Assembly (NCBI GenBank): GCA_016782645.1
Contig: JADHYC010000001.1
Location: 16,579-80,578, forward strand
Direction: 5' to 3'
DNA: 64,000 bases
Origin: Fidelibacterota bacterium
GTDB taxonomy: Bacteria; Fidelibacterota; UBA2242
Numbering within the stretch: the stretch's first letter is position 1; every line of letters begins with the position of its first letter. Position numbers and translations under genes: made by a program. This document shows positions 29,901 to 47,570 of this stretch, piece by piece. The notes under the pieces are model-generated. The model worked only from the letters and a program-made list of their open reading frames with translations, made no database searches and had not been told where the DNA came from.

Positions 29901-30569
29901 ATTCGCTGGACAGCATTTATGGTTACTGCGATTGGTTGGGATGGATGGTCGTACTGGGATTCAAATATTAAAGCCGGTTTTTCTGAAGATAATCTTCCTC
30001 CGGAAACACCGACCAGTTTGACAGGATCACTCAGTGAAGGTAGTGTTGCTTTATTCTGGGAAGAAGTCGTAAATGAGCCAGTCCAATATTATACTATTTA
30101 CAGAAGACTGGAGAATGAACAGTTCGTTCCTATCGGCTATTCAACAGAACCAGAATATTCAGATACAGAACTGATTGGTTCGGAGGTGTATTATGCCGTA
30201 TCTGCAACTGATTATGGCTTAAATGAATCTCCAAAATCCAGTGAAATTAGTGTTACAATTACTGCTATTGATGGCGGTATTGAGATACCGGATGAGTTTG
30301 CCTTGAAACCGAATTATCCTAATCCGTTCAATCCGGAGACGACAATTGAATTTGCTTTGCCAGAAAATAGTAAAGTAACATTGACCGTCTATAATCTGAA
30401 GGGTCAGTTTATTAGAGAACTTGTTAGATCTGAATATAATGCTGGTTATCAGCGTGTTGTTTGGGATGCACGAGATCAATATGGAAATGCTGTCGGAAGT
30501 GGTGTGTATATTTATACAATAAAAGCGGATAATTTTACACAAACGAGGAAGATGGTTCTACTGAGATGA
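26934..30569 (+). CDS. Large secreted T9SS cargo protein with multiple carboxypeptidase-regulatory-like (CarbopepD_reg / Cna-B-like) beta-sandwich domains, an FN3-like domain and a type-A T9SS C-terminal sorting domain
   Basis: Signal peptide. Repeated GYV.D..G.P...A.V motifs (GYVTDENDNPVPDIRVYANTG, GYVYDKDGIGINNARVELYGP, GVVTDAATNNSIPGALVF, GSVVDDVGIPLRNVFIYWES). The T9SS sorting domain is LKPNYPNPFNPETTIEF...VYNLKGQFIRELV...GVYIYTIKADNFTQTRKMVLLR. N-terminal H/K repeat HIGKMHPGKMHLGKTG. Confidence 0.65.
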   Translation: MKEVFMKKIAIILFSLLFVVSIVFGADSDLTLERIQKSRMLKSAFSTIGQEQKVSVEERAIPGMDRRAHIGKMHPGKMHLGKTGNESIQSQKWVMPKKLFQGGKNSLSSGLLKASQFEESDTLVIDFIETDTIQYIPGDIIVFQIVSFDSVLIEPYVDNGDGIFNSDTDLLVEGPDMEEEIWIVDGDEDDETPPGDGVWQVTFNTGGLEEGNFFGLQGMTLFISATEKTSQNQGLGVCCIERPDENTSISGSVMIEGDPMVPAADMIVLAFQKNWFGDGDNGSPDVGFTTMTDDTGYYLIEIPDTLRGEFVVFAFDFWNFYPGYFADPEMMTLPVMGDIPDVNFVLREASETIYGYVTDENDNPVPDIRVYANTGPHYVEDTTDVSGYYVLPVFPGWWRVEVEEDDLIGDYMIPNEQHLEVFEDGDHPADFILYSVDGYIEGTVTYQDGNPAQGIEVEAGIYLGWEEGEYWTYSETDEFGNYTLMVSKALQGREIWDNGYDSTYSWITSYWVSIWEEDDIVVPREYWDIFADTTGLDFTIYMSDAMLSGYIYDSVTDFPLGEAGIHAFSKDSTDGAVPPMDVWDWTEGDGYYELPLIGGAPPDGKLWNIEVFWPHAWIPSVVDTLIVFSGNNYTQDYYIKPPVMQGLVEGYVYDKDGIGINNARVELYGPDYFETWTDEGGYFRIEDLRFGWYNATAYAPDYEPNTIYDIWVGPEPVWLKFWMGSAVGNIFVNGVVTDAATNNSIPGALVFALGEFWMAVSGTDSTGYYEFWLKPGFYDFQAGANGFLADYLEGVEINQDTTINFELGYATIADTAKGSVVDDVGIPLRNVFIYWESDPYPPTYIGYTYTDFDGKYEIGLPSGDYNVMFWKEGFNDEYRWLENFPTNQLEDPVVMWPHTWVFGPEIKSVGDVPDDHGKQVRLTWERAEGLEGTVMEYLIWRAIEPPSGPDPNPDQYHPNWDYVASVSVHPAMGMYHYVAPTLYDKVGDEIRWTAFMVTAIGWDGWSYWDSNIKAGFSEDNLPPETPTSLTGSLSEGSVALFWEEVVNEPVQYYTIYRRLENEQFVPIGYSTEPEYSDTELIGSEVYYAVSATDYGLNESPKSSEISVTITAIDGGIEIPDEFALKPNYPNPFNPETTIEFALPENSKVTLTVYNLKGQFIRELVRSEYNAGYQRVVWDARDQYGNAVGSGVYIYTIKADNFTQTRKMVLLR

Positions 30570-30621: not shown

Positions 30622-30796
30622 TGTGTGGATTTTAAAAATAATATGATTTATTAATTTACAATTGTATATAGTCTTATCTATTCTATCATGAGTGAAATCT
30701 TTAAAAATGTAATCTGGGTCAATAAATTAAGTAGTGCTAATTTTTCATCTTGTAAAACAGAATGAGATTTTATATTTTTGCGTCTGTTTAAGTTTA

Positions 30797-32377
30797 ATGG
30801 TGAAGATGAAAAATAGTATTACAAAGATGATATTTGTTACGAGTCTATTTCTTTTATGGGCTATTAATATCTATAGTTTTCAGGATGTGAGCCTGGTAAG
30901 AATAAAACTTTCTGAGCCTTCTGATATGACAATTCTGGTGAAGATGGGAATAGATATTGCTCGATTTAAAGCTCCTGGTGAGGTTGAAGCCTGGGTAACA
31001 GAAGTTGAATTTGAAAAAATTTCAACGGAGGGCTTTGATATAGAGTATATTCCGGATCTTGCAAAGATTTACGCCGATAGTCTTGAGAAAGCCACGCGTA
31101 ATACAAGTAACCCAATGGATGATTATCACAACTATGATGAGTTAACGACCTTTTTAAATAATACTGTCGATGATCATCCCAATATATGTCAGCTAATATC
31201 AATTGGAACAAGTGTTCAAGGAAGAGAACTTTGGTTCATGAAGATTACTGATAATCCAACAGTTGAAGAGTCGGAGCCAGAATTCAAATATATTGCAAAT
31301 ATGCATGGGAATGAACCTGTTGGCAGAGAGTTATGTCTTTATTTGATAGATTGGTTAACAGATAATTATGGGACTAATACCAGAGCGACATATCTTGTAG
31401 ATAATGCTGAAATCTGGATTATGCCATCAATGAATCCTGATGGTTTTGAACTTCACCAGCGGTACAATGTACAAGGTGTTGATCTTAATAGAGATTTTCC
31501 AGATAGAATTAGTGACCCTAATAATACCACTGATGGAAGAGCACCCGAAACTCAAGCGGTCATGAACTGGGCTTTTCAACATTCTCATATCCTTTCTGCA
31601 AATTTTCATACAGGAGCGCTTGTAACAAATTATCCTTATGATAGTAACGAAAGTGGAAATAATGTATATACAGCCTGTCCAGATGATGCGCTTTTTATTG
31701 ATGTTTCTTTATCTTATTCAATTCACAATTCCCCTATGTATAATAGTCCTTATTTTGATCAGGGGATAACTAATGGAGCAGATTGGTACGTTATATATGG
31801 TGGTATGCAGGATTGGAATTATGAGTGGCAGGGCGACTTTGAAGTAACTATAGAGCAATCAAATACTTTCTGGCCTCCGGCATCTCAACTTCCATCATAC
31901 TGGGCTGATAATCAGGAATCAATGATCAGTTATATAGAAAGTATGTTCAGGGGGATAAAGGGAATAGTAACTGATGCCTCAACCGGACTTCCTGTTGCAG
32001 CGTCAATAGAAATTGTGGGAATAGATCACAAAGTGTATACTGACCCGGATGTTGGTGATTATTACCGGATGGTTATGCCCGGAACTTATGATTTATTGGT
32101 TGAAACAGACGGATATGAGCCCCAGATAATTGAGAATGTTATAGTGAATGAGCAAGAACAAACTATCGTTGATATTCAATTTGGTATTACATGTATTCCT
32201 GGTGATGTGAATAATGACGGTGAGATTAATATTGCCGATATTGTAAAAATAGTTCAATTTATTTTGATACTGGATATACCAGATGATTATGAATTTTGTG
32301 CTGCGGATTGGAATTTTGATGGTGTTATTAATGTGCAGGATATTGTCGGAATTGTTCAGTATATTTTGAACCAATAA
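30797..32377 (+). CDS. Second secreted M14 zinc carboxypeptidase (paralog of 24367..26655) with a CarbopepD_reg-like domain and a C-terminal type-I dockerin; no T9SS sorting domain
   Basis: M14 motifs ANMHGNEPVGRE (HxxE), NPDGFE, VDLNRDFPD and ANFHTGALVTNYPYD. Dockerin GDVNNDGEINIADIVKIVQFIL...ADWNFDGVINVQDIVGIVQYIL. The ORF opens at 30734; the likely start is ATG 30797 or 30806 just before the signal peptide MKNSITKMIFVTSLFLLWAINIYSF. Confidence 0.8.
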   Translation: MVKMKNSITKMIFVTSLFLLWAINIYSFQDVSLVRIKLSEPSDMTILVKMGIDIARFKAPGEVEAWVTEVEFEKISTEGFDIEYIPDLAKIYADSLEKATRNTSNPMDDYHNYDELTTFLNNTVDDHPNICQLISIGTSVQGRELWFMKITDNPTVEESEPEFKYIANMHGNEPVGRELCLYLIDWLTDNYGTNTRATYLVDNAEIWIMPSMNPDGFELHQRYNVQGVDLNRDFPDRISDPNNTTDGRAPETQAVMNWAFQHSHILSANFHTGALVTNYPYDSNESGNNVYTACPDDALFIDVSLSYSIHNSPMYNSPYFDQGITNGADWYVIYGGMQDWNYEWQGDFEVTIEQSNTFWPPASQLPSYWADNQESMISYIESMFRGIKGIVTDASTGLPVAASIEIVGIDHKVYTDPDVGDYYRMVMPGTYDLLVETDGYEPQIIENVIVNEQEQTIVDIQFGITCIPGDVNNDGEINIADIVKIVQFILILDIPDDYEFCAADWNFDGVINVQDIVGIVQYILNQ

Positions 32378-32703: not shown

Positions 32704-32885
32704 AAAAGGACGATTTCATATATTTAAGGCACATGTTAGATGCCATTTCTAGAATGTAAAAGTATATTCACGGCACAGAATACGAAAGCTTTATGGAGAA
32801 TCATCTTATACAGGACGGAGTAATAAGGCAGGTATTATGTTCTGGCTTAGTCTGTTGCCGAGAAAAGAGAAGGAGTAGTCTGTGA
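32700..32885 (+). pseudogene. Decayed HepT-like (DUF86) toxin gene, partner of the MNT remnant (ATGA overlap; in-frame TAA after codon 19; 3' end truncated or diverged)
   Basis: MKKDDFIYLRHMLDAISRM*KYIHGTEYESFMENHLIQDGVIRQ... matches HepT N-terminal helices (cf. DFIYLRHILDAI...FEEFLENELIQDAVIRNLEIIGEA). It then diverges and runs into the next gene's start. Confidence 0.5.
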
Positions 32886-33550
32886 ATAATAAGCTAAAAA
32901 TTATGCTTCCAATTATTGCTCTTCTTTTTCTGTGGGGTTGTGCAGCTCATCCTACGATTAGTCCTGTTCCCTTAAAGCGTGGTGAAACCTACACCGGAAT
33001 CACTTTTTCTGTAGAAAACGTATTTCCTGTTTTTGTATATAGAAAGGGTTTATCTGATATCAGCGACGTAGGTTTTCGTGTTGGTTTACCTATTTATGGT
33101 AGCGGTGTAGATTATTCGAGAATAGTATTTCAGCGTGGAGATATCTATGATGTAATAAACATAGGTTTTTCCTGGACACCAAATTCGAATTTGGATTTGA
33201 CATATTATACAGTAAGAACCTTTCCCAAGAAACCCGGAAACGCTTTTTATACAGGTTTTAGAGGAATGTACATTCCTAATGGCATTAGTGATAGAGAGAG
33301 TGTTCGAGTTGGAATGTTGGTTGGTATTTCTATTGAAGAGAAATGGGGATTGGAGTTAGGTTATTTTCATGATTTTGATAAAGGACAGCCTATTGAATAT
33401 TTGTTTAACCTTGAACCTAAAAACGATCCACGTTATCCTGCAGTAACTGATTATGGTTTGCCGTCAGAAAATTCAAGATTGGTTGGTTTATCTTTGCAAC
33501 TTTCGTTGAATACGAAAGTTTTTTCAAAAAGGGACAGAAGCAATAAATAG
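32882..33550 (+). CDS. Hypothetical lipoprotein
   Basis: Signal plus lipobox (MLPIIALLFLWGCAAHP). It is Gly/aromatic-rich with alternating hydrophobic residues and a C-terminal Phe-containing tail, so it may be a small outer-membrane beta-barrel. GTG start at 32882, or ATG at 32903. Confidence 0.45.
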   Translation: MNNKLKIMLPIIALLFLWGCAAHPTISPVPLKRGETYTGITFSVENVFPVFVYRKGLSDISDVGFRVGLPIYGSGVDYSRIVFQRGDIYDVINIGFSWTPNSNLDLTYYTVRTFPKKPGNAFYTGFRGMYIPNGISDRESVRVGMLVGISIEEKWGLELGYFHDFDKGQPIEYLFNLEPKNDPRYPAVTDYGLPSENSRLVGLSLQLSLNTKVFSKRDRSNK

Positions 33551-33621: not shown

Positions 33622-36600
33622 ATGAGAAAAAGAATTTTTCATCTGATAACACTTGTTATTCTTTTATGCTTTACAGTGGAAATGTCATTTGCTTCCGCTG
33701 AACTTGTTGTTAAAGGGGATTCTAAGCTTATTATTGAACTGGATCAAGTTTCCAGTGATGAAACAGCAGTTGAGCTTATAGAAAATAGTTATCAAAAAGT
33801 CGCTATGATTTATAAGTTTTCAAAAATCCAAAGTTTTAATGTTGTATCTGAAAAGGGGATATTTACGGAGATTATAATTCCAAAAGCTCATTATATTGGC
33901 AACATCGGTACACCAAAACTCCCGGCACTTAAAAAATTGATTGAAATCCCTTTTGGTGCTAAAGTATCTATTAATGTAAAAAGTTATTCAACAATTGAAT
34001 ACAAGTTAAGTAATTGTGGTATCAACAATCCACTCCTACCTGTTCAACCTTCACTACCTAAGAATATTGATCCTCGTTCCGTTGATTTTGTATATGATAT
34101 TGATTCATATACGGTTGATGAATTCAGACAATATGAAATAGCTACTGTCGAAGAGTTAGGTGTGCTCCGTGGTGTTCGTTTTGCCCGGGTAGTTGTTGCC
34201 CCTGTTCGTTATAACCCTGTAAAGGGAGTTATTAAAGTATATAATAATATTGAGGTTGAGATTAACTTTTCAGGCAGCGATATTGATCTGACTGAATACA
34301 TTAAAGCTTCTACTTATTCACCGTATTTTGAAGCAATATACAGAAAGATTATTAATTATAAAGAAAGAGAACACGGTTATCCAGATCACCCGGATTTAAC
34401 TAAATATCCTGTAAAATATTTAATTGTTGCCGATAGAATGTTTGAAAGTCAATTAGAACCTTTTATCGAATGGAAATCACAGAAAGGATTTACAGTAATT
34501 GTCACTTATACTGATGTTATTGGTACTTCATATAGTAATATTCAAACATGGATTCATAATCAATATAATTCTGGAACTCCTGCAGATCCGGCTCCAAGTT
34601 TCGTACTATTTGTTGGAGACACACCGCAAATTCCTGCAGAAACAGGTTCTTCCAGTGGAAAAGCCACAGATTTGTACTATTGTAGTGTAGACGGTGACTA
34701 TTTTCCTGAAATGTATTATGGAAGATTTTCTGCGACTACCGCCGATCAACTGCAACCTCAGGTTGACAGGACACTATATTATGAGAAATATCAATTCTCT
34801 GATCCATCATTTTTAGATAATGTTACATTGATTGCAGGAGTAGATCCGTATTGGAATCCAAATGTTGGTCAACCGACAGTTTTATACGGTACAGAAAATT
34901 ACTTTAATGTATTGCATGGGTTTAATGATGTTCATGTATATCTTGACTCTTATTCCGGATGCTACGAAACAATTAATGATGGGATCAGCTTAATCAATTA
35001 CACCGCACATGGCAGTCAAACATCCTGGGGAAATCCCGGTATGTCACAATCTGACGTTAATGCATTAACAAATGATGGAAAATATCCATTGGCTATTGGT
35101 AACTGCTGTTTATCAGGGGATTTTGGCTATTCGGAATGCTTTGGCGAAACATGGCTAAGAGCAACAAATAATACAACTGGTGAGCCAACTGGTGCAATAG
35201 GATATATTGCATCAGCTCCTTCTTCTTATTGGTTTGAAGATTTTTATTGGGCAGTAGGCGCTTTTCCAATAATAGGAGACAATAATGGCTATGTCCCTCC
35301 TTATGATTCGACTTCATGGGGTGCCTATGATGCTCCGTTTGTAAGTGATTATGTTACCCAGGATGCTTTAAACTTCGTTGGTAATCTTGCGGTTACAGAG
35401 GCTGATATTCAGGGATATCCAACTCATGTTACAGGTTCAAGTGCACTCTATTACTGGCAAGCATATAATCTGCTTGGAGATCCGTCAGTCGTTGTATATA
35501 TGACTCAGGGTGAAAATAATAATGTAAGTTTTGACGGTTTATTACCAATTGGTTCAACAAGTTTTACCGTTAATGCTGAGCCTGGCTCCTATGTAGGTAT
35601 TTCGATGAATGGAGTTTTACATGGTGCTGGTTTAATAGGTGAATATGGGACGGCTAATATACCGATAACCCCGTTTACTGTTGCAGGCACCGCTGATATT
35701 ATTGTAACAAAACCTCAGTATAAGCCAGTTTTTACTACTGTATTAGTTGCTACACCTGCAGTGGTTGGTATTAATCCTGATTCAATTTCTATTAATGTTT
35801 CAACAGAAGTAACCATTTCTGTTTATGAAGAAGATGGAACTACTCCCATTTCAGATGTAGATGTCTGGATTGAAGGATGGGGTGTTGATTCTGAGATTTT
35901 AAGTGGTACGACGAGTGGTTTGGGTGAATTAAGTTTTTCAATAACCCCTCCTTATGGAGAACGACTCAGAGTGATTGGTAAAAGACCGGTTGACAATTAC
36001 TTGCTTTTTACCAAATATATATATGTGACCGATGGTATAGATTTAACAAATGCAAATATTACTCCTAGCGTTGCATCAATTGGGCTTTTTGGTTTATTAA
36101 CACCCTATTATGAAGGACTGATTACTTCTACATGTGATGAAGCTGAAACAGTACTTTTTGCAAGAGGCTGTGGTGTGGATACATCAGTTGTGGCAACAGA
36201 GGTAAATGTAATTCCCGATGAAGTTGGTATAATTTCCGCCGCAATAGCAAAAAGCGGATATAATGTGTATGAAGAAGATATATTAGTTGAAACTGTATAT
36301 GGAACACTAAGCGGAATTGTTCGCGATGAATCCGAACAGGGAGTTCCGGAAGCAGCAATAAAAGGATTTTTACAATCAAATCCGGAAACACCTGCATTTA
36401 CTGCTATTACAAATTCGCTAGGCCAATTTACAATAGAAGGCGAACTGGAAATCGGTTATTACCAGGTTGAGATAGAAAAGTTTGGTTTAGTGCCATATTC
36501 AGAGGAACATTTTCTTCAGTATGGAGCAAACAGCTGGTTCCTTGATTTAACTGGTGCACCCAGCGGCACTGTTTCCGGCACTGTTACCGAAGCAGGCACG

Positions 36601-39075
36601 GGAGTAGCTTTAAATGCCACGGTGAATATTTACAGAGAAGAAAATGAAGAGTGGATTTTACATACTTCAGTAAATACGGTAGCAACAAGCGGTGGAATTT
36701 ATTCTGTTGATCTGCCTTATTATACCTATCTATTTAAAACTACTTCAGCTCATCATGTCCCGAAAACCTTAACAGTTCTTGTAAACAGTGCTTCTCAGAC
36801 AGTTGATTTTGCGCTTGATCCCACAGCTGGAAATATTCTTGTTATTGATGATGATTCAGGGAAAAGAAATATAAACAAAGTAGTTGACGCTGACGGAAAT
36901 TTGATTTCCGAAGAAACTGAAGTTGTTTTTTCGGAAAAGGGACAGTCAGCTAATGAAATTTCTCAAGCATTAATAAGTCTGGGATATTATGTAACTATTG
37001 AAAATGCCGGTTCAAGCAATCCTGATACATGGCTGGATTATGATTTAGTTATTTCATCTTCCGGAGCAAATAGTGACCCTGTCAATGATGATACTTATCG
37101 TACAAATCTTAAACAATATGTAGCAGAAGGCGGAAAACTGCTTATAGAAGGTGGTGAGATCGGCTATGATATGTGTAGTTATTCAGGAGACACAGAATTT
37201 GCAACAAACGTGCTGCATGTAAGTGATTGGAAAGCGGATAATGCCGGTGCTTTTAACCAGGAACTTCCCGATCATGCGATTTCTTCAATTCCAAATAGTA
37301 TTCCTGTATGTCTATACATTGATTATAATAGTTACGGAGACGAAGACGCGTGTACGCCTACTTCGGATGCTTATATTGTTTATAGTAATAATGAAAATTC
37401 AGCACACGCCGGAATCATTGTTTATGATGATAATGAAGTAGATATTAGCGCCCAGACAGTATTTTATACCTTTGCATATCCAAAATTATCTACTGCTGAA
37501 AACAGGGAAGATCTGCTTGAAAATACAGTGCTTTATTTACTTACACCTGAAATACAGGGTTCCGGTGTCTTAACCGGTACTGTTGACCTTATTGATTCTG
37601 ATAATGATGGCGGTGCTATAGTGGAAATTCTCGGAACAAATTTCGAAACAACAACAGATGTAAGCGGAGATTATGTGATCAATGATATTTATCCGGGAAC
37701 TTTTTCAGTAAAGGCATCTAAATTCGGATATACAGTCCAATATATAACAGAAGTGGTAATTGCCAATGATAGTACTACTGAAAATGTTGATTTCTTTTTA
37801 CAGCAGCTGCTTGTGGTCTTCTTTGATGATTTTGAAAATGGGACTTCTCAATGGAATTTGGAAGAGTCATGGGGATTGACAGAGAGTAGTTATTTTTCTG
37901 CTACTCATAGTTTAACAGATAGTCCGGAAGGAAATTATATAGGTAATTCTGCAGGTTGGTCAGCGTCAATGGCAGTACCGATTAATATGGAGGAATGTAC
38001 ACAGGGATTATTGAGGTTCTGGCATAAATATGAATTAGGAGCCGGAGATATGGCGAATGTGGAAGTGAGTGGAGACGGATCGTTTTGGGAAATTGTAAAA
38101 ACTTTTTCCGGAATACAGGAGGATTGGGAACAGGTAAATCTAAATTTATACTCTTATACAGGTTATGACTTTTTATGGGTAAGATTCAGGATGTCTGCCA
38201 ATGCAATGGATAATCTTGACGGATGGTATATTGATAATGTTGAGGTGATGCTTGATGCTGGTTCAGCTTTGGTCAAAGGGGATATTAATCAAGATGGGAA
38301 TATTGATGTTGCGGATATAGTCAAAGAGGTAAATTTTATTCTTAATACTGGTGAGCCGCCAACTCCGGTAGAGTTCTGGTGTGCCGATATGAATGGAGAT
38401 CACCAGATCAATGTTCTTGATATTGTTGAATTAGTAAATATCATTCTGAATGAAAAAAGTATGGCCAAAAGAGCCGGTAAATCCGCTACAAAATGTGAGA
38501 TTATTCGCAGAGGAGATGTGCTTTATTATAATTCGGATGGTGATGTAGCTGGCTTAGAACTCCACTTAATTGGAGGCAATAAAAACTCTATTACAGTTTT
38601 TCCTGAATTAGTAATCGAAAGTGCAGTTTCACAGAAAAATGATCAGACAGTTGTTCTGCTGTATAGTATGGATGAGAAAGTGCTGCCTGCAGGTGAGAAT
38701 GCACTGATGACTATTTCAGAAGGAATGAAAGTAAAATCGGTTATTGTATCAGATATTTTAGGGAAAAAAGTTGAAACTTATGTTAGAGAATTACCAACCC
38801 AATTTAGTTTATATCAGAATTATCCGAATCCCTTTAACCCGACTACGAAGATTGCTTTTGATATACCAAAATCCACTTATGTAACATTAACGATTTATGA
38901 TATTTTGGGAAGGACAATTAAAGTGCTTATAGATCAGGAATTTAAATCCGGAAGTTACGAGGCTATCTGGGACGGGAGAAATAGATATGGTGTTCAAGTA
39001 GCGTCCGGGATTTATTTCTATTCGATTGAGTCTACCGATTTTAACAAGATAAAAAAGATGATTCTTGTCAGGTAG
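33622..39075 (+). CDS. Peptidase C25 (gingipain-like) family cysteine protease, 1817 aa, carrying Ig/CarbopepD-like domains, a MAM-like domain, a type-I dockerin, a cohesin-like module and a T9SS C-terminal sorting domain
   Basis: C25 hallmarks FVLFVGDTPQIP, KATDLYYCSVDGDYFPEMYYGRFS and the catalytic His/Cys region YTAHGSQTSWGNPG...PLAIGNCCLSGDF. MAM-like ...DGWYIDNVEVM. Dockerin GDINQDGNIDVADIVKEVNFIL...ADMNGDHQINVLDIVELVNIIL. T9SS sorting domain LYQNYPNPFNPTTKIAF...IYDILGRTIKVL...GIYFYSIESTDFNKIKKMILVR. Confidence 0.8.
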   Translation: MRKRIFHLITLVILLCFTVEMSFASAELVVKGDSKLIIELDQVSSDETAVELIENSYQKVAMIYKFSKIQSFNVVSEKGIFTEIIIPKAHYIGNIGTPKLPALKKLIEIPFGAKVSINVKSYSTIEYKLSNCGINNPLLPVQPSLPKNIDPRSVDFVYDIDSYTVDEFRQYEIATVEELGVLRGVRFARVVVAPVRYNPVKGVIKVYNNIEVEINFSGSDIDLTEYIKASTYSPYFEAIYRKIINYKEREHGYPDHPDLTKYPVKYLIVADRMFESQLEPFIEWKSQKGFTVIVTYTDVIGTSYSNIQTWIHNQYNSGTPADPAPSFVLFVGDTPQIPAETGSSSGKATDLYYCSVDGDYFPEMYYGRFSATTADQLQPQVDRTLYYEKYQFSDPSFLDNVTLIAGVDPYWNPNVGQPTVLYGTENYFNVLHGFNDVHVYLDSYSGCYETINDGISLINYTAHGSQTSWGNPGMSQSDVNALTNDGKYPLAIGNCCLSGDFGYSECFGETWLRATNNTTGEPTGAIGYIASAPSSYWFEDFYWAVGAFPIIGDNNGYVPPYDSTSWGAYDAPFVSDYVTQDALNFVGNLAVTEADIQGYPTHVTGSSALYYWQAYNLLGDPSVVVYMTQGENNNVSFDGLLPIGSTSFTVNAEPGSYVGISMNGVLHGAGLIGEYGTANIPITPFTVAGTADIIVTKPQYKPVFTTVLVATPAVVGINPDSISINVSTEVTISVYEEDGTTPISDVDVWIEGWGVDSEILSGTTSGLGELSFSITPPYGERLRVIGKRPVDNYLLFTKYIYVTDGIDLTNANITPSVASIGLFGLLTPYYEGLITSTCDEAETVLFARGCGVDTSVVATEVNVIPDEVGIISAAIAKSGYNVYEEDILVETVYGTLSGIVRDESEQGVPEAAIKGFLQSNPETPAFTAITNSLGQFTIEGELEIGYYQVEIEKFGLVPYSEEHFLQYGANSWFLDLTGAPSGTVSGTVTEAGTGVALNATVNIYREENEEWILHTSVNTVATSGGIYSVDLPYYTYLFKTTSAHHVPKTLTVLVNSASQTVDFALDPTAGNILVIDDDSGKRNINKVVDADGNLISEETEVVFSEKGQSANEISQALISLGYYVTIENAGSSNPDTWLDYDLVISSSGANSDPVNDDTYRTNLKQYVAEGGKLLIEGGEIGYDMCSYSGDTEFATNVLHVSDWKADNAGAFNQELPDHAISSIPNSIPVCLYIDYNSYGDEDACTPTSDAYIVYSNNENSAHAGIIVYDDNEVDISAQTVFYTFAYPKLSTAENREDLLENTVLYLLTPEIQGSGVLTGTVDLIDSDNDGGAIVEILGTNFETTTDVSGDYVINDIYPGTFSVKASKFGYTVQYITEVVIANDSTTENVDFFLQQLLVVFFDDFENGTSQWNLEESWGLTESSYFSATHSLTDSPEGNYIGNSAGWSASMAVPINMEECTQGLLRFWHKYELGAGDMANVEVSGDGSFWEIVKTFSGIQEDWEQVNLNLYSYTGYDFLWVRFRMSANAMDNLDGWYIDNVEVMLDAGSALVKGDINQDGNIDVADIVKEVNFILNTGEPPTPVEFWCADMNGDHQINVLDIVELVNIILNEKSMAKRAGKSATKCEIIRRGDVLYYNSDGDVAGLELHLIGGNKNSITVFPELVIESAVSQKNDQTVVLLYSMDEKVLPAGENALMTISEGMKVKSVIVSDILGKKVETYVRELPTQFSLYQNYPNPFNPTTKIAFDIPKSTYVTLTIYDILGRTIKVLIDQEFKSGSYEAIWDGRNRYGVQVASGIYFYSIESTDFNKIKKMILVR

Positions 39076-39341: not shown

Positions 39342-42300
39342 ATGTGTAAGAGGTCTTTGTTAGTTGTATTTTTAATTTTTGTTTTGTTGTTGAGTTTTGG
39401 CTTTGCGGAGAATAGTGTTTCCAATAATGTGGTTAAGAAGTCAGCAGAAGTTGAGATTGTTCTTAACAAATATTTCGGCGGAGAAGAGCTTACTATTAGT
39501 GAAAAACAGATGATTGCTCCTTTCATTGAAATTAATCATAATCATCTAACTAGAAACCTTAGATCAAAAGAGGTTGTTTTAAGTGAGGACTTCTCAGGTG
39601 GAGTTTTACCTACTGGATGGACCGTTTTGGAAGGTTCTTTAAGTAATGTTGATTGGGATTTCAGTGCTCTAGATGCTACATGTGATTGTAGTAGTTACGG
39701 TGATTATGCACAGGATACATTGATTTCTCCAACAATTGATTGTTCATCATATTTAGGTCTTCGATTAAATTTTTACCAAGATTATGATGCATATTCTTAT
39801 GGAGATGTTACGACTCAAGTATTAATTTCAAATGATGGTGGAGCAACATGGATTGTTCTTTTGGATTATACAGGTATAGATCATTTAGCTGAAAACGTAG
39901 GTCCGGTTGATATTAGTACTTATGCCGATGGAGAGGCAAATGTAAAAATTGCATTTGCATATGAATCTGATTTTGGATACCATTGGACTATTGATGATAT
40001 AGTTATTGATACTCCTCCTACCGAGCCTATTATGGTTCTCAGCACCTATTCCATTGATTTTGGGAATGTTGGAGCGGAGGTTGGAAAAGAAACTGTTTCT
40101 GAGAAAGTGTATGTATCTAACAATGGCGGTGGAACGTTAAATATCACTGGTTTTACTTTAAGCTCTGCTGACCTGTCTGTTGATTCTACTTCTTTAACTG
40201 TAGAACCCGGTGTTACCGATTCTTTTGTTGTTTCTTTTGCTTCTTCCACAGCAGGTGTTTTCAATGGAAAAGTTACAATTGCAAGTAATGATGCTGTAAG
40301 CACAGATACAATAGCAGTTACAGCCACGGTAATACCAGCTGGTTATGTAGTAGAAAGTTTTGAAGATGACTTTCCGCCTCAAGGCTGGGATAGAGTTGGT
40401 TATACTTCCAGTTACTTAGATGGGTGGTATGAAAATACTTCTTCTTCTTATGTCTATGATGGTTCAAAATCTGTAAAAGCTAAAGGTCAAAATAGCTGGT
40501 TATTTACTCCTAAGCTTACCATTTCTACTGGTGATTTTATCACCTTTTACTATCGTTCAGAAAGTTCGAGTTACCCGGCAGGTTTGAAACTCAGAATATC
40601 AACAGGCTCGGATCAGATGGATACAACAGGATATACAGCAGTTCTATGGGAAGATGATAATGTTGATGAAACTGAATATCAGAAAGTTACATACACTTTT
40701 GATGCCACTTATGATGGACAGGATGTTTACCTTGCTTTTCAGAGAAATTGGGCTACTTCTAATTATTACTATACTTATGTTGATTATGTCACTCATCCAC
40801 CAATCTACTATCCCGAAGTTTCTTCAATTCTAATATCAGAGATTGTGGTTACCCCAACAGCAGGAGAGTTTGTTGAGATATATAATTCTAATATATATGA
40901 AGTCGATTTATCCAATTATTACTTAACAGATGCAACCTATGCAAGTGGTGGAGCCTACTATTACAATATCGTAACTGGTTCCAATTATGGTGGTGGTAGC
41001 TCCGCGGATTTCCATGCTCGGTTCCCGGATGGTGCTACTATTGCTGCGGAAGCATATCAGACTATTTCAATGGCAGGAAGCGAAGATTTCCTTGCTGAAT
41101 ATGGTGTAGATCCTGATTATGAGTTATATGAAGATGGTGCATCTGCCGATGCTATTCCCGATATGCGTGAGGCAGTAGCTGGAAGTATTAATAATCAGGG
41201 TGGATTGACCAATGGCGATGAAGTTGTTATTTTGTACTATTGGGATGGTGAAAGCGATCTGGTTATGGATTCCGATTATCTACTGTGGGATGATGGTGCA
41301 GAGGTACCTAATGAAGCTGTTGATAAGACTGGAGTAACTATTGACGGACCTGATGCCGATACAGATGTTTCAGCTTATTTAGATGATACTCCTATCGCAA
41401 GTCAGGATTTTGGAGTAAGCCCGGGCTACGGCTTTTCACTTCACAGAATAGATTATACCGAGGGTCTTGAAGCACAGGCAGATGGTAATGGAATTACAGG
41501 GAGCGATGAAACGAGCGAGAACACGAGTGCAACTTTTGCTATAAGCCTTCCTACTCCGGGAGCAGATGCGCAGCTTGATATATATGAACCTAATGATATT
41601 CTTAGTGCTGCAACTGCTATTACAGTACCGGATACGATAGTCGGACCGGAAATTAATCCTGATGGCGATGTTGATTGGTTCTCTTTTGCGGCTGATTCAG
41701 GTAGTTATTTAATCCTTGATTTATTTATTGATGGCTTCTCAAGTTTGGATGGCGAAATTGCCCTATTTTATAGTGATAGTGTAAAATTGGAATCCGCTGA
41801 CTCGTATGGTAGTGGTAGTGATGAAGAAATAGAATATTTTGTTGATTCCACAGGCACCTATTATGTTGCTGTTGCTCATTATTCTGATTTAAAAGATGAT
41901 CGTGCTTATACAGGAGCATACGCATTAGGAGTAAGTGTGGAAACAGAGTATGATCCCTGTGCGGATTATCCTGATCTAAATGAGCCGAATAATGACGTTG
42001 CAAATGCAACAGTAGTTTATGCAGATGATTCTCTTGCAGCAGCACTTTGTCCGACTGAAGACCTTGATTATTACTCTATCACAATTTCTGATGATGGATT
42101 ACTCTATGCAGAAACTCATCCAGGCGCAGCAGGAGACTATGGTACTGACACATATATGTACTTATTAGGCTCAGATGGAACTACTGTGTTAGATGAAGAT
42201 GACGATGCTGGCGATGGATTTACATCCTATGTCGAAGCGGAAGTTACTGCCGGTACGTATTATGTTCTTGTTGAAGTTTCTTCATATGCTGCTGGAGATG

Positions 42301-45300
42301 TGTTTGATTATGGCGTTTCATTTGGGCTTTATATACCACCGGAAGTTTATCCGCCGGCGAATTTTACGGCTTATCCCGGTGACTCGAAGGTATATCTTGA
42401 CTGGGATAGACCTGTCCCTGGTAAAGGTGGGAATTATTCCAGGTTCTCTACTCCGATTGAAAGAGATAGAATGTCTCTCAATATGAACTATGAACCTAAA
42501 AAATCTAAAGATATTACCGGGTCTGCCATTAACGTAGTTGGTGGTTATATACCAGGGGAAACTCAGGATTTACAATTCGCTATTAATATAGTTTCACCCG
42601 ATTATGAATGGTCTGACTCAGTCAGTATGACATTCCCTGCCGGTTTCACTGTAAATTCTGCAAGTGACATTGATGGAGAAGTCTACAACGGCACAGATGG
42701 ATCACTCGTTGAATGGGGCGATAATGATAACAGTTCGGGAGGAATAGTAACAGGAACTACACTTTTTACTGTAAATGTAACCGTTGACGCTGGTGTAACA
42801 GGTGAACAAACAATTAATTATCATATCAGTGGAGACGAATATGGTGCAGTACCTAACTTTGTTGATGGTTCTTTATTAATTAATGAAGGTGGTGGATGCG
42901 AAGATGATGAGTATGAAGATAATGATGATTATCTAAATCCTGCTGCAATGATACCTGGTTTATACGAAGATCTTATGCTGTGCTATATGGATGCCGATTG
43001 GTATTCAGTAATGGTTCCAGCCTATGGTTCAATAACTGTTACTACAGAAGATACAGTTGGATTATTTGACCTGCTTCTTTTCAATCTTGAAATTGATGCC
43101 AGCTATGCTATTGATTATATGATAGACAGTACTGAGATGATTGTATCGTATGTATCTATACTGGATCATGAATCGGAATTTCTTGTCGCTGTAAGAGATT
43201 ATGATTGGAATTTTGGTTCAATGGCTCAAGGTCCTTATGATATGAATATTGTGGTGGAAGAAGCTGAAGTATACACATACGATATCTATTCTGTTGACAA
43301 AACATTAATTGGAAGCACAACAGAGACGGAATATCTTGTAACTGAATTGACTAATGGTGTAGAATATTGTTTCTATGGCAAAACTGTTAATGAAGCAGAA
43401 ATTGAAAGTCCACCATCTGATACAGCATGTGCAACTCCTGAACCAGCTTTACTATGCCCGCCTGTCGGACTTACTGCTGTTCCGGGAGATACATCAGTTT
43501 ACCTTTCCTGGTCAGAGCCGGAACCACCGATGCCGCCGTGTTGGGATTTTGAGATTGATGCTTTACCCTTTGATCATATCTGGTCGAATATAGGTGCAAC
43601 GGATGATTTTGATGTGGACCTCAGTGACGGAGCTGATATTGCATACAAACTGACATTAGACATTCAGACTACACTTGATATTACGCTTTGTGATGCTGTT
43701 ACTGATTATGATACTAAGCTTCAAATTTTCTACGATTGCGAAACTCCATCTGAATTTTATGACGATGATGGTGATTATGATTGTCCTGAAGCGATAGTAT
43801 CTACTAATCCTTCTGAATTAATAGGGATAGTTCTTGATCCGGGCACCTATTTAATTGTTGTTGATGGCTTTTCTGGGTATGAGGGGAACTATGGTATTCA
43901 TGTATCTGAATCGGTAGCAGAAAAATATGTCTTTGATGCGGAAGCGGCAAGACAGTATGAATTAGATAAACTTAGTTCGATGGGACTTTCTGAAGATTTG
44001 ATGCTGCTAGATAAACAGGAAAATCCATGTGGTACATTGCTCGGTTATAAGGTTTATAATTCAGCTGGCGATTCTCTAACCTATTCAACAGTAACTAATG
44101 CATTGATAACCGGTTTGACTAATGATGTAGAATATTGCTTCTATGTGACTGCCGATTATGAGGAAGGTGAATCTTTGCCGAGTGATACAGTATGTGCCAC
44201 ACCGGAAGAACTTGTTCCTCTCCCTCCTGTTAACCTTACAGCAACTCCTTTTGATGAGGAAGTTAGACTGGATTGGGAAGAACCGGGTACAGCACCTCTA
44301 ATTTATTTTGAATGTTTTGAAACATGTGATGGTCCCGTTGGCTGGGGTATGATTATTGAGAATGTAGTTGATAATGGAACTGGTGGTTGGCTCCGAGTTG
44401 ATGACGGAACAACATACGGATGTGGTACGGGAATGAACAATTGTGGAGATGATACTGAAGGACATTGTGTATTTGCTGCCTGGAGTGCTGAAGGTAGTGC
44501 AGTTACTTCCAGATTAATATCACCTCTTATTGACTTAACGAGTGAAACTGCTGCCAACCTGACATTCGAATCTGCATACAATTACCCGGGTGATGCTGAT
44601 TCACCAAATGAGGTTGAGGTTTCGATAGATGGTGGGACAACATGGACGACTGTTTATACTGAAGATCCAACCGTTATTGGTACATGGCATATGGTTCAAG
44701 TTGATTTAAGTACATATGCCGGTTCGCAGATAAACCTCGGCTTTAAATATATTAGCACTGCTGGAAATGCAGAAGGATGGTTTATTGATGATATTGCTGT
44801 AAGAGGTGCATTGGGAAGAACCTTTGCATACAATTTCAGATATAATACGATTGTTGAAAGTAACAAGGATAAGGTTGCAAGCAACATATTATTAACTTCC
44901 GGTAATAAGGAGATTTCCGGAAGTAATATTGTATCGGAAACGGGAGAATATTTTCCAGATGCTACTGATGACCTCTGGTTTACAATTAATCAATCCAGCT
45001 CTGATGTAGAGTTCATTGATGGATTCTCTATGACATTTCCTTCCGGTGTAGTTGTAAACTTTGCCAGTGCGACCGATGGCGGAACTCCATGGAATGGAGA
45101 AACCGGAGATGGTGCAACCATAACCTGGGGTGATATGTCAGGTGGTTCCGGTTGGGGAACAATTGTTGGTTCGGAAGACTTTTCAGTTAATCTATCCACA
45201 GCAGGATTTTCCGGTCCAATGGTTATAGATTATACTTTAGTAGGTGATGGCTACGGAACTGCACCACATACAATTGACGGTCAATTAACACTTTATGAAC

Positions 45301-47570
45301 ATACTTTTATACCTGGTGAACTTCTTGGATATAATGTGTTTGTAAATGATGTACAGCATAATACCGAAATCGTCCGTGGTTTGAAATATATGGTTACCGA
45401 TCTTACTAATGAAGTAATGTATACACTTGGAGTTTCTGCTGAATACTATCCAGGTGTTCATAGTGATACAATTGAAGTAGAGGCTGCACCTATTTATATG
45501 TTTGGTGAAATAACCGGAGTAGTATATAATCCAAATGATGTTCCAATTGAAAATGCTGTTGTTTCCTGTATGGGATTAACTGATACAACTGGCACTGATG
45601 GAGTATATTTACTTGAGAATCTAATTCCAGGTCCCAATGTTGTGAAGGCTACTGCTGATGGATTTGATAAGATGGCAATTGAGGTGGAAATTATTGCACA
45701 GGCAGACCCTGTTGTTGTCGATTTTCATATGATTCCTGCTTTGGGCAGACCTGGAGGATTATTTACCGCTGAAGGTGATTCAAGAGTAGACCTACAATGG
45801 TTTTCTCCTGGAGCTGTAGGTGATGAACTTGTTGAAGGTTTTGAAGCCGCTGTATTTCCTCCAGAAGGTTGGACGCAGATTATTACTCATCCAACTACCA
45901 CATGGCAACAGTACACTGATGAATATGCTTATGAGGGCATTTATAGTGCTGGAACCTGGTGGGATTACGGTCACCAGGATGAATGGCTTATTACGCCAGA
46001 GTTGACCATTGGTTATAGAACGACATTAACATTCTGGTCCTATGCACATGAAGGTTCCCCGAATGATGATCACTATTATGTGAAAGTTTCCACAGATGGT
46101 GGATCAAACTGGATACCAGTATTTGATCTCAGTACTCTTCCTCCAATGGGTGAACTTGAATTTAATGAGTGGGAATATCCTTATACTGTTGATCTCAGTG
46201 ATTTTGCAGGTGAAGATGTAATGATTGCATGGCATGCCGAAGACCCACCAGATAATGATGGACTCTGGTTTATCTGGATGATTGATGCGATCTATATTGG
46301 CTCTGAAAAAGGTGAAATATTCTACTTTAATACAGGACTATGCGGTATTACACCTCCTGGTGTATTAGCAAAGAAAGATGCAAAACATGTACCTACGGAT
46401 GTGGAAAGCAACTATACTCAAACTATAATACACACTCCGCTTAACAAGTTAATTGCAAGCAAAGAAGACACTCTGCTTGGATATAATGTTTACCGTATAG
46501 GAGAAATTGAGGATACTTTACTTACACCAACAATGATTGCAGACACTTTCTATACTGATCTTTTTGTTATGAATTATGTTGAATATAGCTATTACGTAAA
46601 AGCGATTTGGGATACTGATGACTGGGGAGATGTTGAATCCAAGCCTTCTAATATTGCTTCTGCAACACCCTGGAAATTGGGAGATCCTAATTTTGATGAT
46701 AATATAAACGTTGCTGATATAGTATTGCTTGTAAACTTTATTTTGATGATTGATGAACCTACTGCAGATCAATTTCGTGCTGCTGATGTCAATTTTGATG
46801 ATAATTTAAATATTCTTGATATCATCATATTGATAGATATAATGCTTGGAAGAAGCACCGCAAAAGAAGTTAATGATCCCGGTATAACTGCTGATTTGAT
46901 TCTGCCTGATATAGCACCAATACATGAAAAAACCGGTAAAGTTGATCTGGGTATTGACTTTGATGGTACTGCTTACGGTTTACAGTTTACGGTCCGTTAT
47001 AATCCTGATTTAATGACCATAGGGAATCCGGTAATTAATGCTAATGAGAAATTGTCGATAGTGAAAAATCAGGTTGAAAAGGGTGAAATGATTGTTCTTG
47101 CTTATAGCATGAATGGAGAAAAAATCAACTTTAATGTTGAAAACTTATTTACTATTCCTGTTGAATTTGTTAGTAAGGGCTATCGTGGAAAAGCATCAAT
47201 CGAAATTGATGATGTAATTCTTGCCGGTCCAAGTGGAGCTGAGATATTAATGGATAAGAATTCTGGTTCTGTTACTTTAGCTGTGGTACCTGTTAAATAT
47301 GCTTTACATCAGAACTATCCAAACCCATTCAACCCGACAACTACTATTAACTATGATCTTCCTAAAAATGCTCATGTTGAGATAGTTATCTATAATATGC
47401 TTGGTCAAAATATTCGTAAGCTGGTTAATGATGATAAACCGTTTGGTTATCATTCAGTTGTCTGGGATGGAATGACGGATGCTGGTGAATCTGTTTCATC
47501 CGGATTATACATATACCGTATTATTTCTGGTGATTTCCATAAGGTAAAGAAAATGGTATTATTGAAATAA
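39342..47570 (+). CDS. Giant (2742 aa) secreted multidomain T9SS cargo protein: four MAM/choice-of-anchor-like domains, a lamin-tail domain, three pre-peptidase C-terminal (PPC) domains, FN3 domains, a CarbopepD_reg domain, a type-I dockerin, a cohesin-like module and a T9SS C-terminal sorting domain
   Basis: Signal peptide. Lamin-tail domain (ILISEIVVTPTAGEFVEIYNSNIYEVDLSNYYLTDA). PPC motifs (YEPNDILSAATAI...GDVDWFSF; NEPNNDVANATVV...DLDYYSI; EDNDDYLNPAAM...DADWYSV). MAM-like ends (HWTIDDIVID; EGWFIDDIAVRG; WMIDAIYIGS). Dockerin GDPNFDDNINVADIVLLVNFIL...ADVNFDDNLNILDIIILIDIML. T9SS sorting domain LHQNYPNPFNPTTTINY...IYNMLGQNIRKL...GLYIYRIISGDFHKVKKMVLLK. Confidence 0.75.
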   Translation: MCKRSLLVVFLIFVLLLSFGFAENSVSNNVVKKSAEVEIVLNKYFGGEELTISEKQMIAPFIEINHNHLTRNLRSKEVVLSEDFSGGVLPTGWTVLEGSLSNVDWDFSALDATCDCSSYGDYAQDTLISPTIDCSSYLGLRLNFYQDYDAYSYGDVTTQVLISNDGGATWIVLLDYTGIDHLAENVGPVDISTYADGEANVKIAFAYESDFGYHWTIDDIVIDTPPTEPIMVLSTYSIDFGNVGAEVGKETVSEKVYVSNNGGGTLNITGFTLSSADLSVDSTSLTVEPGVTDSFVVSFASSTAGVFNGKVTIASNDAVSTDTIAVTATVIPAGYVVESFEDDFPPQGWDRVGYTSSYLDGWYENTSSSYVYDGSKSVKAKGQNSWLFTPKLTISTGDFITFYYRSESSSYPAGLKLRISTGSDQMDTTGYTAVLWEDDNVDETEYQKVTYTFDATYDGQDVYLAFQRNWATSNYYYTYVDYVTHPPIYYPEVSSILISEIVVTPTAGEFVEIYNSNIYEVDLSNYYLTDATYASGGAYYYNIVTGSNYGGGSSADFHARFPDGATIAAEAYQTISMAGSEDFLAEYGVDPDYELYEDGASADAIPDMREAVAGSINNQGGLTNGDEVVILYYWDGESDLVMDSDYLLWDDGAEVPNEAVDKTGVTIDGPDADTDVSAYLDDTPIASQDFGVSPGYGFSLHRIDYTEGLEAQADGNGITGSDETSENTSATFAISLPTPGADAQLDIYEPNDILSAATAITVPDTIVGPEINPDGDVDWFSFAADSGSYLILDLFIDGFSSLDGEIALFYSDSVKLESADSYGSGSDEEIEYFVDSTGTYYVAVAHYSDLKDDRAYTGAYALGVSVETEYDPCADYPDLNEPNNDVANATVVYADDSLAAALCPTEDLDYYSITISDDGLLYAETHPGAAGDYGTDTYMYLLGSDGTTVLDEDDDAGDGFTSYVEAEVTAGTYYVLVEVSSYAAGDVFDYGVSFGLYIPPEVYPPANFTAYPGDSKVYLDWDRPVPGKGGNYSRFSTPIERDRMSLNMNYEPKKSKDITGSAINVVGGYIPGETQDLQFAINIVSPDYEWSDSVSMTFPAGFTVNSASDIDGEVYNGTDGSLVEWGDNDNSSGGIVTGTTLFTVNVTVDAGVTGEQTINYHISGDEYGAVPNFVDGSLLINEGGGCEDDEYEDNDDYLNPAAMIPGLYEDLMLCYMDADWYSVMVPAYGSITVTTEDTVGLFDLLLFNLEIDASYAIDYMIDSTEMIVSYVSILDHESEFLVAVRDYDWNFGSMAQGPYDMNIVVEEAEVYTYDIYSVDKTLIGSTTETEYLVTELTNGVEYCFYGKTVNEAEIESPPSDTACATPEPALLCPPVGLTAVPGDTSVYLSWSEPEPPMPPCWDFEIDALPFDHIWSNIGATDDFDVDLSDGADIAYKLTLDIQTTLDITLCDAVTDYDTKLQIFYDCETPSEFYDDDGDYDCPEAIVSTNPSELIGIVLDPGTYLIVVDGFSGYEGNYGIHVSESVAEKYVFDAEAARQYELDKLSSMGLSEDLMLLDKQENPCGTLLGYKVYNSAGDSLTYSTVTNALITGLTNDVEYCFYVTADYEEGESLPSDTVCATPEELVPLPPVNLTATPFDEEVRLDWEEPGTAPLIYFECFETCDGPVGWGMIIENVVDNGTGGWLRVDDGTTYGCGTGMNNCGDDTEGHCVFAAWSAEGSAVTSRLISPLIDLTSETAANLTFESAYNYPGDADSPNEVEVSIDGGTTWTTVYTEDPTVIGTWHMVQVDLSTYAGSQINLGFKYISTAGNAEGWFIDDIAVRGALGRTFAYNFRYNTIVESNKDKVASNILLTSGNKEISGSNIVSETGEYFPDATDDLWFTINQSSSDVEFIDGFSMTFPSGVVVNFASATDGGTPWNGETGDGATITWGDMSGGSGWGTIVGSEDFSVNLSTAGFSGPMVIDYTLVGDGYGTAPHTIDGQLTLYEHTFIPGELLGYNVFVNDVQHNTEIVRGLKYMVTDLTNEVMYTLGVSAEYYPGVHSDTIEVEAAPIYMFGEITGVVYNPNDVPIENAVVSCMGLTDTTGTDGVYLLENLIPGPNVVKATADGFDKMAIEVEIIAQADPVVVDFHMIPALGRPGGLFTAEGDSRVDLQWFSPGAVGDELVEGFEAAVFPPEGWTQIITHPTTTWQQYTDEYAYEGIYSAGTWWDYGHQDEWLITPELTIGYRTTLTFWSYAHEGSPNDDHYYVKVSTDGGSNWIPVFDLSTLPPMGELEFNEWEYPYTVDLSDFAGEDVMIAWHAEDPPDNDGLWFIWMIDAIYIGSEKGEIFYFNTGLCGITPPGVLAKKDAKHVPTDVESNYTQTIIHTPLNKLIASKEDTLLGYNVYRIGEIEDTLLTPTMIADTFYTDLFVMNYVEYSYYVKAIWDTDDWGDVESKPSNIASATPWKLGDPNFDDNINVADIVLLVNFILMIDEPTADQFRAADVNFDDNLNILDIIILIDIMLGRSTAKEVNDPGITADLILPDIAPIHEKTGKVDLGIDFDGTAYGLQFTVRYNPDLMTIGNPVINANEKLSIVKNQVEKGEMIVLAYSMNGEKINFNVENLFTIPVEFVSKGYRGKASIEIDDVILAGPSGAEILMDKNSGSVTLAVVPVKYALHQNYPNPFNPTTTINYDLPKNAHVEIVIYNMLGQNIRKLVNDDKPFGYHSVVWDGMTDAGESVSSGLYIYRIISGDFHKVKKMVLLK

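Follow-up and report, generated by a model that had tools for sequence, protein, structure and literature searches.

We analysed a 64,000-nucleotide chromosomal stretch of a Fidelibacterota bacterium (GenBank assembly GCA_016782645.1, contig JADHYC010000001.1, positions 16,579 to 80,578 of the forward strand; 36% GC; hereafter the window), in which two large secreted proteins end in the same kind of tail, built of a dockerin, a cohesin-like module and a sorting domain. Both proteins belong to a cluster of genes for secreted proteins, all on one strand, which lies between 24.3 and 47.6 kb and has housekeeping genes on both sides (primase, MutS2, isoleucyl-tRNA synthetase (IleRS), S-adenosylmethionine synthetase, and others). 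The cluster encodes, in order, an M14 carboxypeptidase with a dockerin (M14a), a 1211-residue type IX secretion system (T9SS) cargo protein, a second M14 carboxypeptidase with a dockerin (M14b), a lipoprotein-like open reading frame (ORF), a gingipain-like C25 peptidase, and a giant surface protein (Table 1); all six have Sec-type signal peptides. The tail is found at the ends of the last two, the C25 peptidase and the giant protein.

Table 1. Genes of the secreted-protein cluster and parts of the two tails (coordinates within the window).
Feature	Coordinates	Strand	Description
M14 carboxypeptidase (M14a)	24367..26655	+	MAM-like domain; C-terminal dockerin at 26470-26652; Sec signal peptide; without sorting domain
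1211-aa T9SS cargo	26934..30569	+	Four CarboxypepD_reg repeats; fn3-like domains; sorting domain
Second M14 carboxypeptidase (M14b)	30734..32377	+	CarboxypepD_reg domain; C-terminal dockerin at 32201-32374; without sorting domain
222-aa lipoprotein-like ORF	32882..33550	+	Kept between M14-dockerin gene and C25 gene
1817-aa gingipain-like C25 peptidase	33622..39075	+	Propeptide; C25 catalytic; C25 Ig-like; CarboxypepD_reg x3; MAM-like region
C25 dockerin (aa 1553-1610)	38278..38451	+	Pfam Dockerin_1, 27.4-35.3 bits
C25 dockerin-cohesin linker, ~12 aa	38452..38487	+	17% identity between orthologues
C25 compact, divergent cohesin module (aa 1623-1723, predicted), ~100 aa	38488..38790	+	Profile
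C25 T9SS type A C-terminal sorting domain (aa 1724-1817)	38791..39072	+	TIGR04183, 39 bits
2742-aa giant surface protein	39342..47570	+	Signal peptide; multi-domain
Giant dockerin (aa 2447-2503)	46680..46850	+	Pfam Dockerin_1, 26.7-30.8 bits; two Ca-loop/helix repeats
Giant dockerin-cohesin linker, ~10 aa	46851..46880	+	Spacing
Giant cohesin module (aa 2514-2646, predicted), 133 residues	46881..47279	+	Profile, fold
Giant T9SS type A C-terminal sorting domain (aa 2647-2742)	47280..47567	+	TIGR04183, 42.4 bits; Por_Secre_tail/FlgD_ig

From N- to C-terminus, each tail consists of a two-repeat dockerin, a linker of 8-12 residues, a module with a cohesin fold, and a T9SS type A C-terminal sorting domain (CTD). 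The original prediction had placed the giant protein's tail at 46680-47567, and these limits are precise: the dockerin opens with the codon at 46680 (aa 2447), and the last sense codon ends at 47567; the copy in the C25 peptidase spans 38278-39072. The dockerin and the sorting signal that had been recognized from the sequence alone at the two ends of both tails are also borne out by family models. All four dockerins in the window exceed the gathering cut-off of Pfam Dockerin_1 (PF00404, 22.9 bits), with 27.4 bits in the C25 peptidase, 26.7 in the giant protein, 36.3 in M14a, and 35.6 in M14b. The NCBIfam model of the T9SS type A sorting domain (TIGR04183; Pfam PF18962; cut-off 23 bits) scores 39 bits in the C25 peptidase and 42.4 in the giant protein, and 41.5 bits in the 1211-residue cargo. 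Each of the four dockerins contains two calcium-binding loops (D-x-N-x-D-x-x-x-N/D-x-x-D), and they can be aligned with no internal gap beyond one residue; 19 positions are invariant, including both calcium loops and the DIV/DII helix starts.

The middle modules of the two tails had been proposed to be homologous to each other, on the strength of peptide stretches that are indeed present in both proteins. A pairwise BLASTP comparison gave no support (E = 0.22, not significant), but the homology stands at the profile level. A hidden Markov model (HMM) of the giant-module family, run against the 195 ORFs of the window, matched the C25 module at the expected place (13.7 bits, E = 3e-4), and its alignment recovers both of the motif pairings first proposed; across these ORFs it found only two cohesins, both single, one in the giant protein and one in the C25 peptidase. 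When the C25 module alone was compared by hhalign with a profile of 49 giant-module sequences, the probability was 90.7% (P = 1.2e-6), and none of 200 shuffled sequences reached its score of 36.6 (shuffle maximum 22.3, mean 11, standard deviation 2.2). Sliding-window hhalign across the three long proteins of the cluster singled out just these two modules. Adding two C25 orthologues (L095 and L096), taken from metagenome contigs that bear homologues of the giant protein, raised the probability to 98.1% (P = 6.7e-14). We also looked for a hidden cohesin in the 1211-residue cargo and rejected it: the best hhalign window there reached 41.6% and overlapped the CTD, and hmmsearch gave E = 1.6.

The reading of the middle module as a cohesin rests on profile and structure comparisons, in which both the PDB profile search and Foldseek return cohesins. 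An exhaustive PHMMER search with the giant module against 1.84 billion cluster representatives (E <= 1e-3) yielded 80 homologous proteins; word-indexed searches with each module alone found no homologues, and a search with an alignment of 50 sequences (49 trimmed family modules, including that of the giant protein, plus the C25 module) found one protein only. Taken singly, 41 of the 50 aligned modules match the Pfam Cohesin model (PF00963) with E-values below 0.01 (the lowest being 4.4e-16), and its gathering threshold of 24.1 bits is exceeded by relatives that have this tail, for example P0033 (66 bits), P0009 (44 bits), and P0074 (38 bits). Searched against the PDB, the family profile returned cohesins as all of its top 22 matches, from E = 8.7e-7: the NagJ cohesin (2jh2 and 2ozn, 8.7e-7), ScaB cohesins, the Archaeoglobus cohesin 2xdh, and 5nrk. 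As single PHMMER queries against the PDB, the giant module gave a marginal match to a cohesin (2vo8, E = 0.25) and the C25 module gave noise only. The AlphaFold2 model of the giant module (mean predicted local distance difference test score 92.3, predicted template modelling (TM) score 0.85) is a flattened beta-sandwich of nine strands that can be superposed on solved cohesins; the best 50 Foldseek matches to it in the PDB are all cohesins (E down to 1e-8, TM 0.73-0.77). These results support the assignment of the middle modules of both tails as cohesins by sequence and model, with dockerin binding as a prediction, and by its sequence the C25 module is a compact, divergent cohesin.

The tail was also sought on other proteins, and among homologues of the giant module it turned out to be common. 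Among the 80 family representatives, 44 have the order dockerin-cohesin-CTD, 19 have cohesin-CTD, 13 have the cohesin only, and two have dockerin-cohesin. Of the 19 cohesin-CTD entries, some are fragments that have lost their N-terminus, but more than 10 are full proteins about 250 residues long, consisting of a signal peptide, a cohesin and a CTD without a dockerin (P0005, P0043, and others). The distance from the last calcium loop to the start of the cohesin is constrained across the family (median 32 residues, interquartile range 32-35), so that the linker is only about 8-12 residues long. Four relatives combine the dockerin-cohesin-CTD order with an over-threshold Pfam Cohesin match (P0033, P0034, P0009, and P0074, the last being a GDSL lipase with a PA14 domain). 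Other relatives, outside the window, have more than one cohesin: three are Coh-Doc-Coh-CTD proteins (P0029, P0063, and P0069), P0047 has several cohesins and a CTD, and P0015 has six modules, so by their domain content true T9SS-anchored scaffoldins appear to exist in related organisms. A (Doc-Coh)x2 arrangement was also seen in this set of relatives, which includes P0046. No multi-cohesin scaffoldin, as in a cellulosome, was found among the 195 ORFs of the window, which hold the two single cohesins only.

Among named genomes, the full tail occurs in Fidelibacterota, Neomarinimicrobiota/Marinimicrobia, Zixibacteria, a Bacteroidota metagenome-assembled genome (MAG), and an 'FCB group' MAG. Tail-bearing genes may be consecutive (two in one locus and three in another), and gene order is conserved around them: giant-HtrA-IleRS in loci L001 and L003, C25-giant-HtrA in L095 and L096, and M14-dockerin, lipoprotein, C25 in L081, where the M14 gene is a syntenic orthologue of M14b. 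By this synteny the window belongs in the Marinimicrobia/Fidelibacterota neighbourhood. A metagenome scan with the C25 dockerin and module gave 14 loci, with dockerin-only matches; dockerin-terminal proteins are present in L081-L094.

On balance, this analysis suggests that the tail is probably a three-part surface-assembly device, which would build a cell-bound multi-peptidase assembly joined by cohesin-dockerin pairs in trans. By analogy with the T9SS of Porphyromonas and Flavobacterium, the protein, once exported by Sec, would be led through the T9SS by its sorting domain; a sortase would then remove this domain, and the new C-terminus would become fixed on the outer-membrane surface. Because the new C-terminus would directly follow the cohesin, the cohesin would be the membrane-proximal module, nearest the cell, with the dockerin just beyond it. 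Going by the known behaviour of cohesins and dockerins, the cohesin would then be a socket that takes up dockerins in trans, dependent on calcium. The best candidate plugs would be the dockerins of M14a and M14b, the two neighbouring carboxypeptidases; these dockerins are very much alike, and the enzymes, lacking a sorting domain, have nothing to anchor them. The dockerins of the C25 peptidase and of the giant protein are further candidates. Cross-recognition among the four dockerins of the window is plausible from their sequences, since they are closely alike, with their 19 invariant columns taking in both calcium loops. The members of such an assembly would be the C25 endopeptidase, the M14 carboxypeptidases, and the giant protein as a large non-catalytic binding subunit, and the assembly could be extended as chains, because each anchored subunit bears both a plug and a socket. 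Binding in trans is indicated by the cohesin-CTD proteins without a dockerin, among which P0047 with its several cohesins also counts, and by the dockerin-terminal proteins, both those of L081-L094 and the two M14 enzymes a few kb upstream, which lack a CTD. The conservation of the tail as a unit (44 of 80, with constrained spacing) and the conserved gene linkage also count in favor of this interpretation, as do two precedents described below, Amy4 of Ruminococcus bromii and the system proposed for Ca. Stygibacter.

Several observations weigh against it. The giant module scores 17.7-20 bits with Pfam Cohesin (E = 8e-4 to 4e-3), under the threshold, and the C25 module has no match to that model whatsoever. 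The AlphaFold2 models of both modules were built on alignments of the cohesin family; the support that is independent of those alignments comes from the single-sequence Pfam and PDB signals of the giant module and from the hhalign statistics of the C25 module. The C25 module is shortened by deletions around strands 4-5 and 7-8, and it evolves faster than its neighbors in the tail (31-44% identity between C25 orthologues, against 57-62% for the dockerin and 53-56% for the CTD); being both shortened and fast-evolving, its socket may be altered or lost. The same short length is found in both recovered orthologues, L095 and L096, so the module is not the decayed remnant of a single genome. In addition, the M14 enzymes have a Sec signal only and no evident route over the outer membrane, the fixed short linker could instead be a sign of binding in cis, and no T9SS machinery (SprA, PorU, PorV, and others) was found within the 64-kb window.

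Binding in cis leads to a different picture, in which the dockerin would bind the cohesin of its own chain and form a closed, rigid two-domain stalk beside the sorting domain, with no intermolecular assembly; such a clasp might be stabilizing, might fill the socket while the protein is in the periplasm, or might hold the cargo at a distance from the membrane. This fits the presence of both modules on 44 of the 80 representatives, always adjacent, in one order and with the narrow spacing given above. However, family members with a cohesin and a CTD but no dockerin, and the dockerin-only enzymes next door, both need partners in trans, the linker of 8-12 residues may be too short for the dockerin to reach the binding face, and Amy4 of Ruminococcus bromii, which has the same pair, multimerizes and binds other dockerins. 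We regard the cis clasp as unlikely.

We hold it equally doubtful that the module has the fold without the function, serving as a spacer or 'pedestal' before the sorting domain, as the Ig-like domain does before the gingipain CTD, with the dockerin being an unrelated calcium-binding or glycan-binding module. The sub-threshold Pfam Cohesin results for both modules of the window and the truncation and fast evolution of the C25 module are in line with this idea, and a beta-sandwich domain of some kind precedes the CTD in many T9SS cargoes. If the dockerin and the module were unrelated, though, their strong and ordered co-occurrence would be hard to explain, and the relatives with several cohesins and a CTD resemble true scaffoldins. 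The sheet formed by strands 8-3-6-5 is the dockerin-binding sheet in solved cohesins. The conserved columns of the family (GxQF..YDP, VL..S..G, IP, and VILA.P.G) fall in predicted strands 3, 6, 7, and 8, which speaks against a mere spacer.

A variant prompted by the M14 enzymes, with their Sec signals only, is that they hitch-hike: they would dock on the cohesin of the C25 peptidase or the giant protein in the periplasm, pass the wide T9SS translocon as folded passengers, and reach the surface pre-assembled. We consider this a long shot; if true, the cohesin would double as surface socket and export adaptor, T9SS cargo would be recruited in a novel manner, and the position of a plug-socket pair directly beside the sorting signal would be accounted for. 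Least credible of all is that the module is an N-terminal Ig-like extension of the Por_Secre_tail sorting domain, unrelated to cohesins, the outcome that had been named as fatal to the cohesin reading: the module does abut the CTD and both are beta-sandwiches, but the 1211-residue cargo of the same cluster has a CTD without the module, most of the 80 loci from a search with the whole tail match the CTD alone (about residues 200-299 of the query), 13 representatives bear the module without a CTD, and fold and profile searches return a strong signal to cohesins, not to CTDs.

The proposed trans assembly draws on module families that are well known elsewhere. With the clostridial cellulosome (the scaffoldin CipA with type I cohesins, and dockerins on the enzymes) our tails share the same two module families, two-repeat dockerins, and the same nine-strand cohesin fold (TM about 0.65 to 2ccl and 1ohz); they differ from it in having no multi-cohesin scaffoldin, carbohydrate-binding module or glycoside hydrolase, no S-layer homology or sortase anchoring, and a peptidase cargo in a diderm organism. 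The best profile and structure matches to the giant module are the cohesins of NagJ and NanJ of Clostridium perfringens (PDB 2jh2, 2ozn, 2w1n, and 2vo8), which are likewise single, non-cellulosomal cohesins inside large secreted enzymes. The NagJ and NanJ cohesins link enzymes pairwise instead of building a cellulosome. They belong, however, to Gram-positive toxin and glycosidase complexes with the dockerins on other proteins and no T9SS, and identity to the giant module is only about 14-16%.

Closer in layout is Amy4 of R. bromii, a protein with a catalytic module, a cohesin, and a dockerin, whose cohesin recognizes not only its own dockerin but also the dockerins of other enzymes (PMC4611034). 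There, as here, it is an enzyme and not a scaffoldin that carries both modules, and self-assembly and mini-complexes result. Amy4, in contrast, comes from a Gram-positive Firmicute, has an amylase as cargo, and relies on a separate sortase-linked scaffoldin as anchor, whereas our cargo is peptidases and the anchor is a T9SS sorting domain in the chain itself; its dockerin is C-terminal, whereas in our tails the cohesin stands between dockerin and sorting domain; and its binding was shown by experiment, whereas ours is predicted from sequence and model. In Ca. Stygibacter (Cloacimonadota), dockerin-bearing C25 and S8 peptidases were proposed to assemble on a CTD-anchored cohesin scaffoldin (Williams et al., 2021; PMC8542988). 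That system, itself only predicted, is similar in belonging to a candidate phylum of the FCB group, in its dockerin-bearing gingipain-like C25 peptidase, in tying cohesins to the cell through a T9SS-type CTD, and in its predicted role in polypeptide degradation; it differs in placing tandem cohesins on one non-catalytic scaffoldin of 3755 residues with dockerin-only enzymes, whereas each anchored protein with our tail has a sorting domain of its own along with a single dockerin and a single cohesin. Our literature searches returned no account of a dockerin-cohesin-CTD tail and, in the searchable library, no paper with both 'Marinimicrobia' and 'dockerin'. What sets the tail apart, as far as sequence comparison tells, is that the cargo itself bears a compact dockerin-cohesin-CTD cassette, that this cassette is widely conserved in FCB candidate phyla, and that it is linked to peptidases.

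As for the rest of the cluster, the giant protein has four choice-of-anchor J domains and one choice-of-anchor D domain upstream of its tail (39342-46679), as well as lamin-tail (LTD), PPC, MAM/reelin-like, fn3, and CarboxypepD_reg domains; domain searches detected no catalytic domain in it, and it has the look of a binding or adhesin-type protein of very large size. The C25 protein was also considered as the T9SS sortase PorU and rejected, with a fragment-only match of 34.9 bits against a cut-off of 450 (NF033707/NF052324). Homologues of the 1211-residue cargo lie at the same relative position in loci L015, L018, and L045. The N-terminus of the 222-residue ORF (MLPIIALLFLWGC) resembles a lipobox, and its product matches no family in Pfam or NCBIfam; a homologue with 65% identity lies between the M14-dockerin and C25 genes in L081, and because of this conserved gene order it may belong to the system.

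Elsewhere in the window, neither Pfam nor NCBIfam gives a match to two ORFs (8033-9064, 343 aa; 61211-62917, 568 aa). The gene at 55487-56404, amid housekeeping genes, encodes a tyrosine recombinase of the XerC/XerD type (Phage_integrase with an N-terminal SAM-like domain), which is probably the chromosomal dimer resolvase, not part of a mobile element. On the minus strand, between 12366 and 17298, lie genes for an M48 peptidase bearing an SH3 domain, a CHASE2-adenylate/guanylate cyclase, and a protein resembling transglutaminases; these three may make up a module for signalling or the envelope that has no connection with the dockerin-cohesin tail.

Uncultured but abundant, the Marinimicrobia (SAR406) and their relatives break down organic matter in the sea. 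A conserved tail of plug, socket, and anchor would offer a concrete mechanism for cell-bound peptidase assemblies in diderm bacteria. The tail could serve as a compact tag of about 300 residues for self-assembling surface display in Bacteroidota-like hosts, and, if the proposed mechanism is true, assembly by cohesins and dockerins would reach beyond the cellulosomes of Gram-positive bacteria to the surfaces served by the T9SS.

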